The translations under genes and the position numbers were made by a program. Positions 1,687-6,256 of a DNA stretch of 7,674 nucleotides are shown piece by piece. Position 1 is the stretch's first letter. The number at the start of each line of letters is the position of its first letter. Source of the stretch: a virus. Its lineage: Duplodnaviria; Heunggongvirae; Uroviricota; Caudoviricetes. The stretch lies in the IMG/VR virus record IMGVR_UViG_2703719355_000017; one strand, 5' to 3'. Below the pieces are notes generated by a model. It did no database searches. It was not told the origin of the DNA and worked only from the letters and a program-made list of their open reading frames with translations.

Positions 1687-1756
1687 CTTTCACTACCAAT
1701 AGAAACATAACAACCGCAACGACTTTATCAAAAGCGTTGTGTTTGTTACGCTCCGT

Positions 1757-1805
1757 GGTTTAGTTTTTACTTGACTTAAGTTTAATGTTTATTAAACTAA
1801 AAATA
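1757..1805 (+). promoter_or_regulatory. Second operator/promoter copy (OL/PL-like) downstream of the toxin gene
   Basis: GGTTTAGTTTTT (1757-1768) parallels GGTTTAGTGTTTTT at 735-748. -35 TTGACT (1771-1776), 16-nt spacer, -10 TAAACT (1793-1798). GTTTAATGTTTATTAAAC (1780-1797) matches GTTTAGTGTTTAATAAAC (755-772) at 16 of 18 positions. Confidence 0.45.
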
Positions 1806-1979
1806 CCAACCCACCCCGCCCCACAGAACGCCGGGCAATACTTCGAGTTACCAGGCAGTGGTCAGGGGGGTAAGTAGCCAGCCCGAGGCGTAAGAACATG
1901 ACGGCAGGGTTCAACTTTAATAACTATGCAGCAGGTTTTTGTTCCGCTACCCCGGCGTTAAGGGGAAACAGAGGATTTC

Positions 1980-2318
1980 TCAGTGGGCGAAGTCAAACAT
2001 CAGAATGGAAGGCATCCCAGGATCGGCAAAGAAGCAGCAATGGCGCTTTATATTGACATCAGCGCCATTACCGGACAGGTAAGAGTTATCAGAGCGGTAA
2101 CTAAGCGGTATGCGCCTTTGCTTCAGAAAGGCTCTGGTGAGTGCACCGAAGATACTGTCAACGATTTCGTCATCGAACTGCGAGGACTCATCTTCAGTTA
2201 CAAGGTGACCACAATTTTTGCAGATGGCTCCCGCGAAACTGTCAGAGCCCTGCGGCTTAAAGGATGTGTCAAAGACTTCGCCACCACATTCTGGGCAAGA
2301 AAACTTAATTGTATTCAT
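1980..2318 (-). CDS. Small zinc-ribbon protein, 112 aa from the ATG (function unknown)
   Basis: ATG at 2318..2316; the track's first codon is TTG at 2324. GAGG on the minus strand about 9 nt upstream. N-terminus carries CPECGG-x21-CKNCG (C-x2-C...C-x2-C) followed by an acidic stretch. Preferred over the co-extensive plus-strand ORF, which has more rare Arg codons (AGA/AGG/CGA). The C-terminal half is less protein-like, so true length is uncertain. Confidence 0.5.
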   Translation of the reverse strand: MNTIKFSCPECGGEVFDTSFKPQGSDSFAGAICKNCGHLVTEDESSQFDDEIVDSIFGALTRAFLKQRRIPLSYRSDNSYLSGNGADVNIKRHCCFFADPGMPSILMFDFAH

Positions 2319-2410
2319 AACCAATTTCCTCTCGAGTAACAGCCCCCTCAGAGGATACCACCTCGCCTGACGTGGTTAAAAGCAGGCAACGCTAACCACA
2401 AGGAGCTGAC

Positions 2411-2629
2411 ATGCAGAAACCAGAACCCACTATCATCGCACCAGGCTATACCGATGATGAACTTTATGAGTGGATGCGCCAGAAAATTAATGCAGCGCAG
2501 GATCTGAAATGGGCCAATGAAGCCAGGGCTAAGCAGGCTGAAAATCTGTCCGCTCTGGAGCAGGATATCACCAGACTGGAAAAAGCAGCGGCATTAAGCA
2601 TTGCCAGAATGATTACATACCCACGTTAA
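2411..2629 (+). CDS. Hypothetical protein, 72 aa, predicted helical/coiled-coil
   Basis: Strong SD AGGAG (2401-2405) 5 nt before ATG 2411. Product MQKPEPTIIAPGYTDDELYEWMRQKINAAQDLKWANEARAKQAENLSALEQDITRLEKAAALSIARMITYPR. No family recognised by eye. Confidence 0.7.
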   Translation: MQKPEPTIIAPGYTDDELYEWMRQKINAAQDLKWANEARAKQAENLSALEQDITRLEKAAALSIARMITYPR

Positions 2630-2651
2630 TAGCTAACCAACGAGGCTAATA

Positions 2652-3026
2652 ATGGAATTTAAAGATTTACCAATGCAATTCCAGGAAATGGCAGCGAATA
2701 TAGTTCGTTCCCAACTGGCGACTCTTGACCTGAGTACCGTAGAAAAAGAAACCATCGATACTATATCCAGTAACGTGCGTCGTGCCTTTATCGGTCTGTA
2801 CGAAGAGAAGCAGCTCTCTGATAACCAGGATTTACATGAAAAATACTTCCTGGATCTAATGGACATCATTAATAAGGGATTTGGCTTGTTAATGAAACAG
2901 AAAGGGATTCGAATGAACCCCCTTGAAAATTACTTCGCAACAAGAAGCATTAATTCCTGTGATTTAAAGCATCCCGCCACAGACGGGAGTGTTACAGCTA
3001 GCCATGAGATTTCGATTAATCATTAA
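2652..3026 (+). CDS. Hypothetical protein, 124 aa
   Basis: SD GAGG (2642-2645) 6 nt before ATG 2652. Starts 22 nt after the previous gene, suggesting an operon. Lower GC than flanking genes by eye. No family recognised. Confidence 0.7.
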   Translation: MEFKDLPMQFQEMAANIVRSQLATLDLSTVEKETIDTISSNVRRAFIGLYEEKQLSDNQDLHEKYFLDLMDIINKGFGLLMKQKGIRMNPLENYFATRSINSCDLKHPATDGSVTASHEISINH

Positions 3027-3114: not shown

Positions 3115-3155
3115 GGCGGCATCAGTTTAATTGCTGGCTGATGTCCGCCCTTTTT
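3115..3155 (+). terminator. Putative rho-independent terminator
   Basis: GC-rich stem GGCGGCATCAG (3115-3125) pairs with CTGATGTCCGCC (3138-3149) with one bulge; 12-nt loop; followed by TTTTT (3151-3155). Lies about 90 nt after the 124-aa gene. Confidence 0.5.
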
Positions 3156-3159
3156 AAAG

Positions 3160-3178
3160 TGAATTTTGTGATGCGGTG
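3160..3178. repeat. Left arm of a 19-bp perfect inverted repeat
   Basis: TGAATTTTGTGATGCGGTG (3160-3178) is the exact reverse complement of 3303-3321. Arms are separated by 124 bp. Confidence 0.9.
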
Positions 3179-3302
3179 AATGCGGCTCAGCGCACGCGGA
3201 ACAGTTAAAAAGGCCAGTTGACTTCCGTATTGGTTCTTATGGGTGGGTTCTCTGTATCCGGCGTTAATTGTTAACTGGTTAACGTCACCTGGAGGCACCA
3301 GG

Positions 3303-3321
3303 CACCGCATCACAAAATTCA
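3303..3321. repeat. Right arm of a 19-bp perfect inverted repeat
   Basis: CACCGCATCACAAAATTCA (3303-3321), reverse complement of 3160-3178. Confidence 0.9.
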
Positions 3322-3338
3322 TTGTTGAGGACGCGATA

Positions 3339-3527
3339 ATGGAAACGTTATTACCAAACGTTAATACGTCTGAAGGTTGCTTTGAAATTGGTGTCAAAAT
3401 CAGTAACCCTGTATTTACTGAAGATGCCATTAATAAGAGAAAACACGAACGGGAGCTATTAAATCAAATATGCATTGTTTCAATGCTGGCCCGTTTACGT
3501 CTGATGCAAAAAGGATACTGGCAATGA
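3339..3527 (+). CDS. Hypothetical small protein, 62 aa
   Basis: ATG 3339 with GAGGA (3327-3331) 7 nt upstream. The longer track ORF from 3243 would start inside the inverted-repeat region and is rejected. Stop TGA 3525-3527 overlaps the next start. Confidence 0.55.
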   Translation: METLLPNVNTSEGCFEIGVKISNPVFTEDAINKRKHERELLNQICIVSMLARLRLMQKGYWQ

Positions 3528-3805: not shown

Positions 3806-6256
3806 ATGAGCGCTGATAAAGAAGAAATTGCACTATATTACGAAGCCAAAAATGACAAAGTCAGAAAACGCCTTGGGATTAAAGGCGGTTTTTACTGGCG
3901 CACAGCAAAAAAATTATCGATTGCAATATCACGCGGTGTTGTCGCAATGGACGATGCCGGATTTGACGAAGAGGATTTTAAAAAACCTGTTCGCGTCCAT
4001 TTACCCGTTGTGAATGACCTTCCTCCGGAAGGCGTGTTTGATACCGAATTCTGCAACCGATACGAAAAAGGCGGGGAAGATGGTATCACAATGGTACTTA
4101 TCGCGCCCTCTGTTCAGGATAAACCAGCCAGCACTGACAATACCAACGTCAACGGTGAAGACATGACTGAGATTGAGGAGAATATGCTCCTGCCAGTTTC
4201 AGGTCAGATTCTGCCTGTTCGATGGCTGGCGCAACACAACAGCGAAAAACCGATCACGCACGTTTCGCAGGACGAACTGCGCGCATTACATAACGCACAG
4301 GATGAAAAACTTCCCGCCGTTACCGCGCTGGCCATCTCAAATAAAGCAGCGCAACTCGAACCACTGGAAATTCGCGATCTCCACAAACTGGTACGCGACA
4401 CTGACAAAGTTTTCCCTAATCCTGGTAATTCAGACCTGGGACTGATGACCGCTTTTTTCGAAGCATACCTGGGCGCTGACTACACCGATCGCGGTCTGCT
4501 TACAAAAGAGTGGATGAAAGGAAATCGTGTTTCACGCATCACCCGCACGGCTTCCGGTGCTAATGCCGGTGGAGGGAACAAAACCGATCGCAATCCGAAT
4601 TTAGTACACACCTTTGATACGCTGGATGTGGAGATTGCAGCGGCCACACTTCCGATGGATTTTAATATTTATGAAATTCCGGGCAGCGTTTATCGTCGCG
4701 CAAAAGAAGTCGTCCGGAAGAAAGAAAGTCCGTTCAAAGAATGGTCCGCAGCACTTCGCGCAATCCCGGGTATCCTGGATTATTCCCGCGCCGCTATTTT
4801 TGCACTTATCCGGAGCGCACACCCTGAGTTTTATCATTACCCGGGACGCCTTCAGGGGTATATCAACGCCTATTTAACGGAGACTGATCACGAGAACCCT
4901 ACCGAGGAAACTCTCGCTGCTGCACGACATACACCGGAAAAAGATATCCTGGAAGAAGTTAACCGCGAACTGGCTGCTGAACACGAAACAGAAGAAGAAA
5001 AAAATAATGAGGAAAAATCACAACCGTCTGACGCAATGGCAGATGAACAGGCAACGGCTGAAGAAATGGAGCCGGATACAACTGAACATCACCAGGACAC
5101 GCAATCGCTGGATACTCAGGAACAGGTAGATCCAGTTAAACAGGTAAAAGTTACCGCTGACGAAGTAAACAAAATTATGCAGGCAGCCAATATCAGCCAG
5201 CCTGACGCCGATAAGTTACTTGCTGTATCACGTGGTGAATTTGTTGAGGGGATTAGCGCCCCTAATGATCCGAAATGGGTCAAGGGGATCCAGACTCGCG
5301 ATTCTGTGAACCAGAACCAGCATGAATCGGAACGGAACTACCAAAAAGCGGAACAAAACAGCCCAAATGCGTTACAAAACGAGCCAGAAACGAAACAACC
5401 TGAACCAGTAGTGCAACAGGAACCGGAAAAGATCTGCACCGCCTGCGGTCAGAGCGGTGGCGGCAACTGCCCTGATTGTGGTGCGGTGATGGGTGACGCA
5501 ACATACCAGGAAATATTCGATGGAGAGAATCAGCCTGAAGTTCAGGAAAATGATCCGGAGGAAATGGAAGGCACTGCGCATCAGCACAAGGAGAACACTG
5601 GCGGCAATCAGCATCATGCCAGCGATAGTGAAACTGGCGAGGCGTCAGATCCCTTAATTAAGGCGAACGGTCATCATAATCTCACATCCACCAGCAGAGC
5701 GGGGATTCATCTGATGATCGACCTTGAAACCATGGGAAAAAATCCCGATGCCCCGATTATCTCAATAGGTGCAATATTTTTCGATCCGCAAACCGGAGAT
5801 ATGGGACCGGAATTTAGTAAGACTATCGATCTGGAAACTGCTGGCGGAGTCATTGATCGGGACACCATTAAATGGTGGCTTAAACAATCACGCGAAGCGC
5901 AATCTGCCATTATGGCCGATGAAATCCCGTTAGATGATGCACTGTTACAATTGCGGGAATTTATCGACGAAAACTCCGGTGAATTTTTTGTTCATGTCTG
6001 GGGAAATGGAGCCAACTTCGACAACGTAATTTTACGCCGTTCATATGAACGACAGGGCATCCCCTGCCCGTGGCGCTACTGCAACGATCGCGATGTACGC
6101 ACAATTGTTGAACTGGGAAATTCCATTGGCTTTGATGTCAGAATGACTATTCCATTCGAAGGTGTACCTCACAATGCACTCGATGATGCACGTCACCAGG
6201 CAAAACAAGTTTCAGCTATCTGGCAAAAACTGATCCCGAGTCAGGCTGATTTTTAA
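3806..6256 (+). CDS. Large prophage exonuclease-like protein, 816 aa: N-terminal region of unknown function, acidic low-complexity linker, C4 zinc-ribbon motif, C-terminal DEDDh (DnaQ/RNase T-like) 3'-5' exonuclease domain
   Basis: SD GAGG (3795-3798) 7 nt before ATG 3806. DEDDh motifs read directly: Exo I MIDLETMG (D639, E641; nt 5720-5728), Exo II HVWGNGANFDN (D739; nt 6020-6022), Exo III HNALDD (H789, D794; nt 6170-6187). C-x2-C-x7-C-x2-C at residues 544-558 (nt 5435-5479). Acidic E/D/Q/T-rich region at about residues 360-630. Confidence 0.85.
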   Translation: MSADKEEIALYYEAKNDKVRKRLGIKGGFYWRTAKKLSIAISRGVVAMDDAGFDEEDFKKPVRVHLPVVNDLPPEGVFDTEFCNRYEKGGEDGITMVLIAPSVQDKPASTDNTNVNGEDMTEIEENMLLPVSGQILPVRWLAQHNSEKPITHVSQDELRALHNAQDEKLPAVTALAISNKAAQLEPLEIRDLHKLVRDTDKVFPNPGNSDLGLMTAFFEAYLGADYTDRGLLTKEWMKGNRVSRITRTASGANAGGGNKTDRNPNLVHTFDTLDVEIAAATLPMDFNIYEIPGSVYRRAKEVVRKKESPFKEWSAALRAIPGILDYSRAAIFALIRSAHPEFYHYPGRLQGYINAYLTETDHENPTEETLAAARHTPEKDILEEVNRELAAEHETEEEKNNEEKSQPSDAMADEQATAEEMEPDTTEHHQDTQSLDTQEQVDPVKQVKVTADEVNKIMQAANISQPDADKLLAVSRGEFVEGISAPNDPKWVKGIQTRDSVNQNQHESERNYQKAEQNSPNALQNEPETKQPEPVVQQEPEKICTACGQSGGGNCPDCGAVMGDATYQEIFDGENQPEVQENDPEEMEGTAHQHKENTGGNQHHASDSETGEASDPLIKANGHHNLTSTSRAGIHLMIDLETMGKNPDAPIISIGAIFFDPQTGDMGPEFSKTIDLETAGGVIDRDTIKWWLKQSREAQSAIMADEIPLDDALLQLREFIDENSGEFFVHVWGNGANFDNVILRRSYERQGIPCPWRYCNDRDVRTIVELGNSIGFDVRMTIPFEGVPHNALDDARHQAKQVSAIWQKLIPSQADF

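Follow-up and report, generated by a model that had tools for sequence, protein, structure and literature searches.

At positions 1980-2339 of the 7,674-nucleotide (nt) stretch of Caudoviricetes DNA analyzed here (IMG/VR record IMGVR_UViG_2703719355_000017; the whole stretch is referred to as the window), both strands are open, and the question raised by the locus is which strand is the real one. The window belongs to a lambdoid prophage of the Escherichia coli O157:H7 Sp12/CP-933P type, of which it covers the immunity and early-left region, and the open reading frames (ORFs) in question are a minus-strand ORF for a small zinc-ribbon protein and a co-extensive ORF on the plus strand. An earlier note, made from the letters of the window, offered the two as alternatives, with either the minus gene or the plus gene being real. 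Comparison of homologous loci supports coding constraint on both strands instead, and the answer is probably that both are genes. On balance, we read positions 1970-2388 as a compact antisense dual-coding cassette, with a core of ~350 bp and an E. coli form of ~420 bp, in which the zinc-ribbon gene is nested entirely inside the plus gene and has its own Shine-Dalgarno (SD) sequence and a conserved upstream region of ~70 nt.

Results

Geometry and start signals of the two ORFs

The minus-strand ORF begins with an ATG at 2316-2318, preceded by the SD sequence GAGAGGAAA at 2325-2333, and in the window it continues for 112 codons to a stop at 1980-1982. As the earlier note described, it encodes a C-x2-C...C-x2-C zinc ribbon followed by an acidic segment; the motif is C8-x2-C11...C33-x2-C36 and the acidic stretch that follows reads VTEDESSQFDDE. 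The conserved part is a 66-codon core (2121-2318, minus strand) that holds the Cys pairs, the acidic VTEDESSQFDD sequence and a C-terminal helix. The plus-strand ORF that the note had also pointed out is present at 1983-2339, with a GTG start, a GAGGA SD at 1971-1975, an internal ATG at 2040 and a stop at 2337-2339. Counted from the internal ATG, it encodes a 99-residue protein of PHROG 21318 (2040-2339) and carries the whole zinc-ribbon core antisense inside it, while its N-terminal 26 codons (2040-2117) do not overlap the zinc-ribbon gene. The codon registers of the two ORFs are exactly antisense: first codon positions on one strand pair with third positions on the other, so that each triplet is a codon on both strands. 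The zinc-ribbon gene is convergent with parE2, which ends at 1686, and antisense to transcripts from a promoter of the early-left (PL) type, an arrangement proposed in the note and borne out by the promoter we located at 1771-1798. A consensus scan found no terminator between the two genes.

The plus ORF has an optional 5′ extension of E. coli type (1971-2039), composed of the SD, the GTG at 1983 and 19 codons, which brings the protein to 118 residues. In E. coli-type variants the SD and the GTG (ATG in locus L149) are kept and the peptide is variable; the extension is absent from other genera. In the copy carried by the ompW prophage of strain EDL933 (locus L241, 2340-2360, minus strand), a 1-nt deletion that converts GGGCGAAGTC to GGGCGAGTC places the GTG out of frame, and only the 99-residue ORF from the ATG survives. 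The ATG at window position 2040 is thus the conserved start and the 19-codon extension is optional.

Selection on the two frames

We inferred 368 substitutions by parsimony on a neighbor-joining (NJ) tree of 50 distinct sequences and classified each of them in both frames. Transitions outnumbered transversions 247:121, and a kappa of 4 was used. Classes are named by their effect in the zinc frame and then in the plus frame (N, nonsynonymous; S, synonymous). Within the 66-codon overlap, there were 61 NN events (0.67 per site), 101 SN events (2.01 per site), 54 NS events (1.01 per site) and 10 SS events (3.81 per site).

For the zinc frame, the tree-based ratio of nonsynonymous to synonymous rates (dN/dS) is 0.38, and dNN/dSN is 0.33 (bootstrap confidence interval (CI) 0.21-0.49). 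Because the synonymous sites of the zinc frame are first positions of the plus frame, a ratio above 1 would be expected here if only the plus strand were coding, and a value of 0.38 therefore marks the zinc frame as coding. Moreover, plus-synonymous sites are slower inside the overlap than outside it, by a factor of 0.35 (CI 0.24-0.50). The substitution pattern thus points to clear purifying selection on the zinc-ribbon frame.

Outside the overlap, the 26 plus-frame codons at 2040-2117 have a dN/dS of 0.47 (CI 0.30-0.72; binomial p 8.6e-6), the lowest of all six frames, and the plus frame is the sole frame that is free of stops in all 50 distinct sequences. Pairwise omega values for this segment (NG86 method) range from 0.12 to 0.64, with dS often >1, and no indels are found in eight lineages. 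Here too, the pattern argues for clear purifying selection, in this case on the plus frame. Inside the overlap, the evidence for the plus frame is mixed, with replacements that appear biased towards conservative ones. The ratio dNN/dNS is 0.66 (CI 0.44-0.94) and dSN relative to the outside-synonymous sites is 0.70 (CI 0.49-0.97). In a cleaner test, restricted to changes that are synonymous in the zinc frame, accepted transitions have a plus-protein BLOSUM62 score of 1.06, compared with 0.40 for all possible ones (n=83, P=0.0004). None of the 101 accepted zinc-synonymous changes creates a stop in the plus frame, although 4-5% of the possible changes would do so. Which frame is under selection was a check that the earlier note had proposed; dN/dS is 0.38 for the zinc frame and, for the plus frame, 0.47 outside the overlap and 1.01 inside it.

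Maintenance of the open frames against chance

The probability that either frame would be open by chance was calculated analytically, with codon usage taken from the other genes of the window (TTA and CTA together make up 33% of Leu codons and TCA 21% of Ser codons). When the zinc gene is recoded synonymously, the plus frame opposite it has a 2-15% chance per lineage of being open, or 0.6-4% when 27 free codons are included. Conversely, the zinc frame is open in 2-8% per lineage, a figure that drops to ~1e-4 when the four Cys and the ATG are required. Synonymous sites are saturated between the major lineages (dS > 1), and because of this saturation the chance probabilities compound over at least four or five lineages.

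Homologues in five genera

We collected ~150 loci from complete E. coli genomes, from IMG/VR and metagenome scans with a conserved 27-mer, and from look-ups of diverged proteins. Homologues were found in Escherichia, Citrobacter, Klebsiella, Enterobacter and Serratia, with 55-95% identity and four invariant Cys; the zinc-ribbon proteins of C. amalonaticus, K. variicola, C. freundii, K. michiganensis, E. hormaechei and one Serratia species show 55-70% identity to that of E. coli. In the homologue alignments C8, C11, C33, C36 and the GSDSFAGA and VTEDES motifs are invariant or nearly so, and the positions of the zinc-gene ATG and stop are kept across E. coli, Citrobacter, Klebsiella, Enterobacter and Serratia. 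The antisense ORF is open in every one of these lineages, for 93-186 codons from stop to stop, and ends within a few codons of the zinc-gene ATG; the length of the plus protein is 93-118 residues across lineages. Both ORFs are present in all five genera and both are full length in 124 of the 150 loci; the plus ORF is open in 149 of the 150, and also in Serratia.

Homology between lineages has sharp limits. It starts at the start region of the plus ORF, where the four Citrobacter and Klebsiella lineages have an ATG with a GGAG-type SD before it (the Enterobacter ORF extends further upstream of this shared region), and it ends ~70 nt upstream of the zinc-gene ATG, at GCCTG (~2388). The flanks beyond both ends are unrelated. 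Whatever the context, the plus ORF shares the direction of the early operon in which it lies, and the zinc-ribbon gene is opposed to it. In six lineages (from E. coli, C. freundii, Enterobacter, K. michiganensis and Serratia) the plus ORF follows the repressor on the PL side; in C. amalonaticus and K. variicola (L007, L008; locus at 4004-4285) it is on the early-right (PR) side, directly after cro, in the place of cII. In the latter two, the zinc-gene ATG is kept although the plus ORF ends before it.

The earlier note had looked to conserved Cys residues and an uninterrupted minus frame. The Cys residues are invariant in the homologue alignments; the minus frame is open in most loci, and the zinc ORF is broken in 24 of the 150. 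Twenty-two of these share a single nonsense allele, E14* (GAA to TAA at codon 14), which in the plus protein is a Phe to Leu replacement. The E14* clade includes L241 (the EDL933 ompW prophage, NZ_CP008957.1 1848502-1848801), L111 and L018, and the plus ORF survives in it. Beyond these loci, a scan of genome contigs for wider homologues returned just unrelated short zinc ribbons, from a Bacteroidota metagenome-assembled genome and from a Rhizobium.

A stop-loss allele in the window

The earlier note took the minus-strand product to be 112 residues long, whereas the family form has 66. Codon 67 (2118-2120, minus strand) is CAA (Gln) in the window and TAA or TAG in the other 149 loci, so that residues 67-112 are a read-through tail; the change from TAA to CAA makes the window the sole stop-loss allele among the 150 loci. 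Nearly all intact homologues end after residue 66 (the 66-codon ORF is found in 124 of the loci), the Serratia protein has 62 residues, and two miscalled variants have 64 and 68. Among the homologues collected, none was found to extend past residue 66 at the C-terminus.

The tail (1980-2117, minus strand) comprises 45 codons for residues 68-112 and the stop at 1980-1982, and lies outside the family protein. It is open because it is the exact antisense frame of the N-terminal coding region of the plus ORF, and this frame is open in 47 of the 50 distinct sequences. On the plus strand the stop loss is synonymous (Leu TTA to TTG). The window also has GCC (Ala) instead of GAC (Asp) at codon 63 (2130-2132), a D63A replacement. 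Its zinc-ribbon allele, with both changes, would give a 112-residue protein and may be decaying.

Family identity and split annotation

The minus protein matches NCBIfam NF047912 (ECs_2282_CxxC), the ECs_2282 family of putative zinc-binding proteins, with 54.6 bits against a cutoff of 37 (E 7.6e-15), residues 4-57 aligning with profile positions 1-54 of 60, and is more weakly similar to the N-terminus of phrog_4852 (E 6e-9). Of the family traits, C8, C11, C33, C36 and the GSDSFAGA and VTEDESSQFD motifs are present in the window; the family size of ~60-66 residues in a single domain is not that of the 112-residue window ORF, whose first 66 residues form a normal member. The plus protein matches phrog_21318 over its full length (E 6.3e-64; residues 20-118 on profile positions 1-99 of 99).

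The locus is present in 937 of 5,426 complete E. coli genomes, including the O157:H7 prophages Sp12 and CP-933P. The core 66 residues of the type member, ECs_2282 (NP_310309.2, from Sakai Sp12 and identical to EDL933_RS35180 of CP-933P) are ~95% identical to those of the window, and its locus, like the window, has paaR2-paaA2-parE2, the opposite-strand zinc gene, ydfC, dicB, the exonuclease gene, xis and int. The window allele differs from it by the lost stop codon and D63A. The ECs_2282 family entry consists of a name, without function, expression data or overlapping partner, and a literature search on the ECs_2282-family locus, its neighbors and peptides found no paper. The PHROG 21318 proteins (99-118 residues: URE76712.1 of vB_EcoS-813R8, BCI48940.1 of Stx2_14040, VUF53767.1 of phage Evi, and EDL933_RS09595) are the same plus ORF, co-directional with ydfC and dicB and directly after the repressor/PL region. 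These records lack the antisense zinc-ribbon gene and none notes two families on the same DNA.

Annotation of the locus is correspondingly split. RefSeq and its Prokaryotic Genome Annotation Pipeline (PGAP), as well as the Sakai re-annotation, call the 66-residue minus gene, and phage records call the 118-residue plus ORF. In two cases, strain GF31 and the ompW prophage of EDL933, PGAP calls the 99-residue plus ORF; the ompW prophage is the single E14* copy whose annotation was inspected. Neither the annotations nor the papers searchable here record dual coding of the locus, which would explain the systematic conflict, in which PGAP with NF047912 arrives at the minus gene and phage records at the plus gene. 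Judged by these comparisons, the zinc-ribbon gene appears to be real and to belong to an already named family, and the plus ORF bears the marks of a translated, constrained gene.

Properties of the two proteins

Sequence searches of Pfam, PHROGs, NCBIfam, PADLOC and the PDB gave generic zinc-ribbon similarity for the minus protein and nothing informative for the plus protein. The minus protein scores 19.9 bits against PF08271 (cutoff 29) and matches PDB 1vd4 with an E of 0.22; its resemblance to TFIIB and TFIIE-alpha is one of general fold only and is non-significant. Structure prediction, which the earlier note had suggested, was run on the zinc-ribbon protein with AlphaFold2 (AF2): the predicted local distance difference test score (pLDDT) was 57, and the Foldseek matches of the model were all zinc ribbons, all at E >= 1. 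The AF2 model of the plus protein is a helix-helix-beta-hairpin-helix fold of moderate confidence (pLDDT 70, rising to 77-84 in residues 41-90).

Two known identities were considered for the zinc-ribbon protein and rejected. SieB gave no PF14163 match at E <= 0.1, and the 66-residue protein is acidic and without a hydrophobic segment, in keeping with the statement of the earlier note that it is not SieB-like. Lar/Ral, which acts in restriction alleviation (phrog_6422), matched with an E of 0.033 and 15.6 bits, over the zinc-ribbon region only. The note's likening of the position and orientation of the gene to those of sieB holds: in E. hormaechei (L015, 3323-3823), a gene of the Pfam SieB family shares the strand of the zinc-ribbon gene and is located 277 nt upstream of it, and both point against the repressor/PL operon.

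Transcription signals

The region upstream of the zinc-ribbon gene (2319-2388, minus strand) contains the SD, an extended -10-like motif and inverted repeats. The motif, TGgTATCCT at 2352-2360, is kept as TGnTATCYT or TGnTATTCT in Klebsiella, Citrobacter, Enterobacter and Serratia. The upstream block is kept in E. coli, K. michiganensis, C. freundii, Enterobacter and partly in Serratia, and the sequence past GCCTG depends on context. The block may function as a promoter. Two interleaved inverted repeats, ACCAC at 2357-2361 with GTGGT at 2372-2376 and GCCTG at 2365-2369 with CAGGC at 2383-2387, overlap the -10-like motif. Either an operator or an RNA pseudoknot is conceivable for this stretch (2352-2387), in which covariation was looked for and not found.

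For the plus strand, the entries available from the Cappable-seq tables of PMC10469882 include, in all nine conditions, a transcription start site (TSS) at EDL933 position 1,848,930 (minus strand of that genome), which they attribute to EDL933_RS09595, the ORF of plus type in the ompW prophage. We find this TSS 129 nt upstream of the EDL933_RS09595 ATG and behind TTGACC-N18-TAAATT, in a copy that is 95% identical. Among the same entries there was no TSS at the CP-933P copy, whose zinc gene is at NZ_CP008957.1 2344277-2344477.

In the window, a consensus scan placed a PL-type sigma-70 early promoter, TTGACT-N16-TAAACT, at 1771-1798 (plus strand), together with operator repeats. It is an inverted copy of the PR promoter/operator (12 nt 100% and 24 nt 79% complementary). 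The 12-nt perfect inverted copy that the PR and PL regions share, TACTTGACTTAA, fits the OR/OL architecture described for CP-933P (PMC8630535). Operator-like repeats, TTTGCGAGTTTAGTGTTTAATAAA and variants of it, occur at 748-810 and 1768-1798. We equate the promoter with PL933P, which in reporter assays is repressed ~100-fold by PaaR2 and by YdaS (PMC8630535). It would drive plus-sense transcription through the cassette, with the plus ORF as the first gene transcribed.

Surroundings of the cassette

A leader of ~165 nt (1804-1969, plus strand) separates the PL-type promoter from the cassette and is found in most genomes that match window positions 1700-2700, an interval matched in 4,328 of 5,426 complete E. 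coli genomes. Among the Qin-type matches listed, the leader precedes ydfA-ydfB, and the cassette (~1970-2390) takes the place of these two genes between leader and ydfC. A nut-like site, a small RNA (sRNA) or an attenuator are possible roles for the leader. Within 1970-2390, no Rfam family matched at E <= 1.

The gene order of the window is matched by the Sakai and EDL933 records. On the minus strand lie a ydaT-like gene (1-426) and a ydaS/cro-like gene (423-725), followed on the plus strand by paaR2-paaA2-parE2 (760-1686). Beyond the cassette come ydfC (2411-2629), a DicF-like RNA, dicB and a DUF1482 gene, and then an exonuclease gene (3806-6256), xis and int. The DicF-like sRNA (RF00039; 3104-3150, plus strand) scores 35.1 bits against a gathering score of 48 (E 8e-5), and an STnc100-like stretch (RF02076; 3148-3371, plus strand) scores 34 bits against 47; both matches are below the Rfam thresholds, yet lie at the expected position of the dicF-dicB operon. 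Opposite the dicF/dicB region, a 102-residue minus-strand ORF (3122-3430) has no PHROG match and may be a shadow ORF.

Discussion

The reading of 1970-2388 as a dual-coding cassette has to be weighed against a number of results. The naive plus-frame dN/dS of 1.01 inside the overlap is the value of a shadow frame (outside the overlap, the mirror frame has a ratio of 1.0 as well), and the plus third positions show no deficit of nonsynonymous relative to synonymous changes (1.28 vs 1.01 per site). With each site change entered a single time, the BLOSUM62 bias falls to 0.89 vs 0.40 (n=38, P=0.03), and transversions give no significant bias. The substitution counts themselves were derived by parsimony from an NJ tree, for prophage DNA that recombines. 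For the plus protein, no relatives in fold or sequence were found, and a profile search of 1.84 billion representative proteins returned just 8 cluster representatives of its family. As to the zinc-ribbon protein, its AF2 model is poor, the strict consensus scan does not call its proposed promoter, and the gene is dispensable where E14* knocks it out, in ~15% of the sampled loci. Transcription of the zinc gene and translation of either ORF are predictions.

Several of these results would be expected if only the zinc-ribbon gene were real, the plus ORF being its shadow and the 78 nt past the zinc stop a 3′ untranslated region or terminator. The shadow-like ratio and the missing contrast at plus third positions inside the overlap agree with such a view, as do the choice of the minus gene by PGAP and the Sakai re-annotation, the absence of relatives of the plus family outside the cassette, and a GGCGCT...AGCGCC hairpin that can form in the 78-nt region. 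What makes us consider it rather unlikely is that those 78 nt behave as coding DNA: their 26 codons are constrained (0.47), without stops or indels, in eight lineages with dS > 1, and homology begins at the plus start region, with its GGAG-type SD in four lineages. A shadow frame would also have to be open in 149 of 150 loci, when the chance of this is 0.006-0.04 per lineage, to acquire conservative replacements and zero stops from zinc-synonymous changes, to persist in the E14* clade, where the zinc frame is lost, and to keep a constant orientation relative to the host operon.

Both ORFs might be translated with only the zinc protein being functional, translation of the plus ORF serving to shield the first 300-350 nt of the transcript from Rho-dependent polarity on its way to ydfC-dicF-dicB, or to tune antisense interference. 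The openness of the plus ORF is indeed the strongest plus-strand signal and amino-acid constraint inside the overlap is weak; the ORF is, moreover, always at or near the head of an early operon, in the slot that ydfA-ydfB fill in Qin-type prophages. The constraint on its N-terminal 26 residues, the conservative replacements inside the overlap and the moderately confident fold predicted for the plus protein speak for a functional product, and we hold this explanation to be improbable.

That only the plus gene is real, with a chance antisense ORF whose Cys pattern derives from conserved Thr and Ala codons, agrees with the phage records and PGAP runs that annotate the plus ORF alone and with the loss of the zinc frame by E14* in 22 of 150 loci and of its stop in the window, but is very hard to sustain given a zinc dN/dS of 0.38 where >1 is expected, plus-synonymous sites that are three times slower inside the overlap than outside, four Cys that need ACA or GCA plus codons in every lineage (~1e-4 per lineage with the open frame and ATG), a zinc ATG kept where the plus ORF ends earlier (L007, L008), a TAA or TAG stop in all loci but the window, the conserved 70-nt upstream block with its SD, and the NCBIfam and phrog_4852 similarities.

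If the cassette does encode both proteins, their use may be separated by stage, an arrangement that fits the geometry and the constant orientation of the locus. In lysogeny, with PL held shut by the repressor, a weak promoter of its own would supply the zinc-ribbon protein. On firing of PL (or of PR), head-on transcription and antisense pairing would silence the zinc-ribbon gene, and the plus protein would be made. With its TFIIB/TFIIE-like ribbon, invariant acidic motif and amphipathic helix, the zinc-ribbon protein would most likely bind a protein or nucleic-acid partner and might be a small regulator or an exclusion factor. The note's suggestion that early transcription antagonizes such a factor is compatible with the arrangement. 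We put forward only tentatively, and as less likely to be true than not, that the cassette is a conserved, mobile strand switch in which a lysogeny-phase zinc ribbon and an early-lytic plus protein, encoded by the same 200 bp, are made mutually exclusive by convergent transcription and pairing of their mRNAs.

The sieB-type genes of lambda, P22 and Rac also lie on the opposite strand in the PL region. Like the zinc gene, they are small and set against early-left transcription with expression signals of their own, those of the zinc gene being predicted. SieB itself is a membrane protein of ~170-190 residues that is unrelated in sequence to the zinc-ribbon protein and is not nested in another coding gene. 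The ydfA-ydfB genes in the dicB operon of the Qin prophage share the slot of the cassette, between leader and ydfC; unlike it, they are both on the operon strand, without an antisense gene, and are unrelated in sequence.

The antisense pairs of E. coli O157:H7 (ano, asa and three EDL933 pairs) reportedly consist mostly of young, narrowly distributed ORFs inside well-known genes. They resemble the cassette in having an ORF embedded antisense and in coming from the same organism group and, as far as the titles and abstracts of the papers tell (PMC9927249 for the three EDL933 pairs), they are known mainly from RNA-seq, Ribo-seq and phenotypes. The cassette is known from sequence comparison, with evidence that spans five genera; both of its partners are small and uncharacterized, and the embedded zinc-ribbon gene is the more strongly constrained of the two.

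Fully nested antisense coding pairs are few in bacteria and phages, and they are often disputed because the evidence for them usually consists of expression data from one strain. Judging from its comparative record, the locus would be a new and comparatively well-supported member of this rare group. Conservation over five genera, separable signatures in the two frames and natural alleles that disable one frame and spare the other (E14* and the stop loss) make it an unusually tractable test case. If the cassette were a strand switch, it would be among the few antisense pairs with selection visible on both frames in several genera, and the locus would report and reinforce the state of the prophage repressor. 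Given its place between the promoter of the bistable PaaR2/YdaS switch, which directly precedes it, and the cell-division inhibitors dicF and dicB further downstream, either product of the cassette could affect prophage maintenance or host killing.

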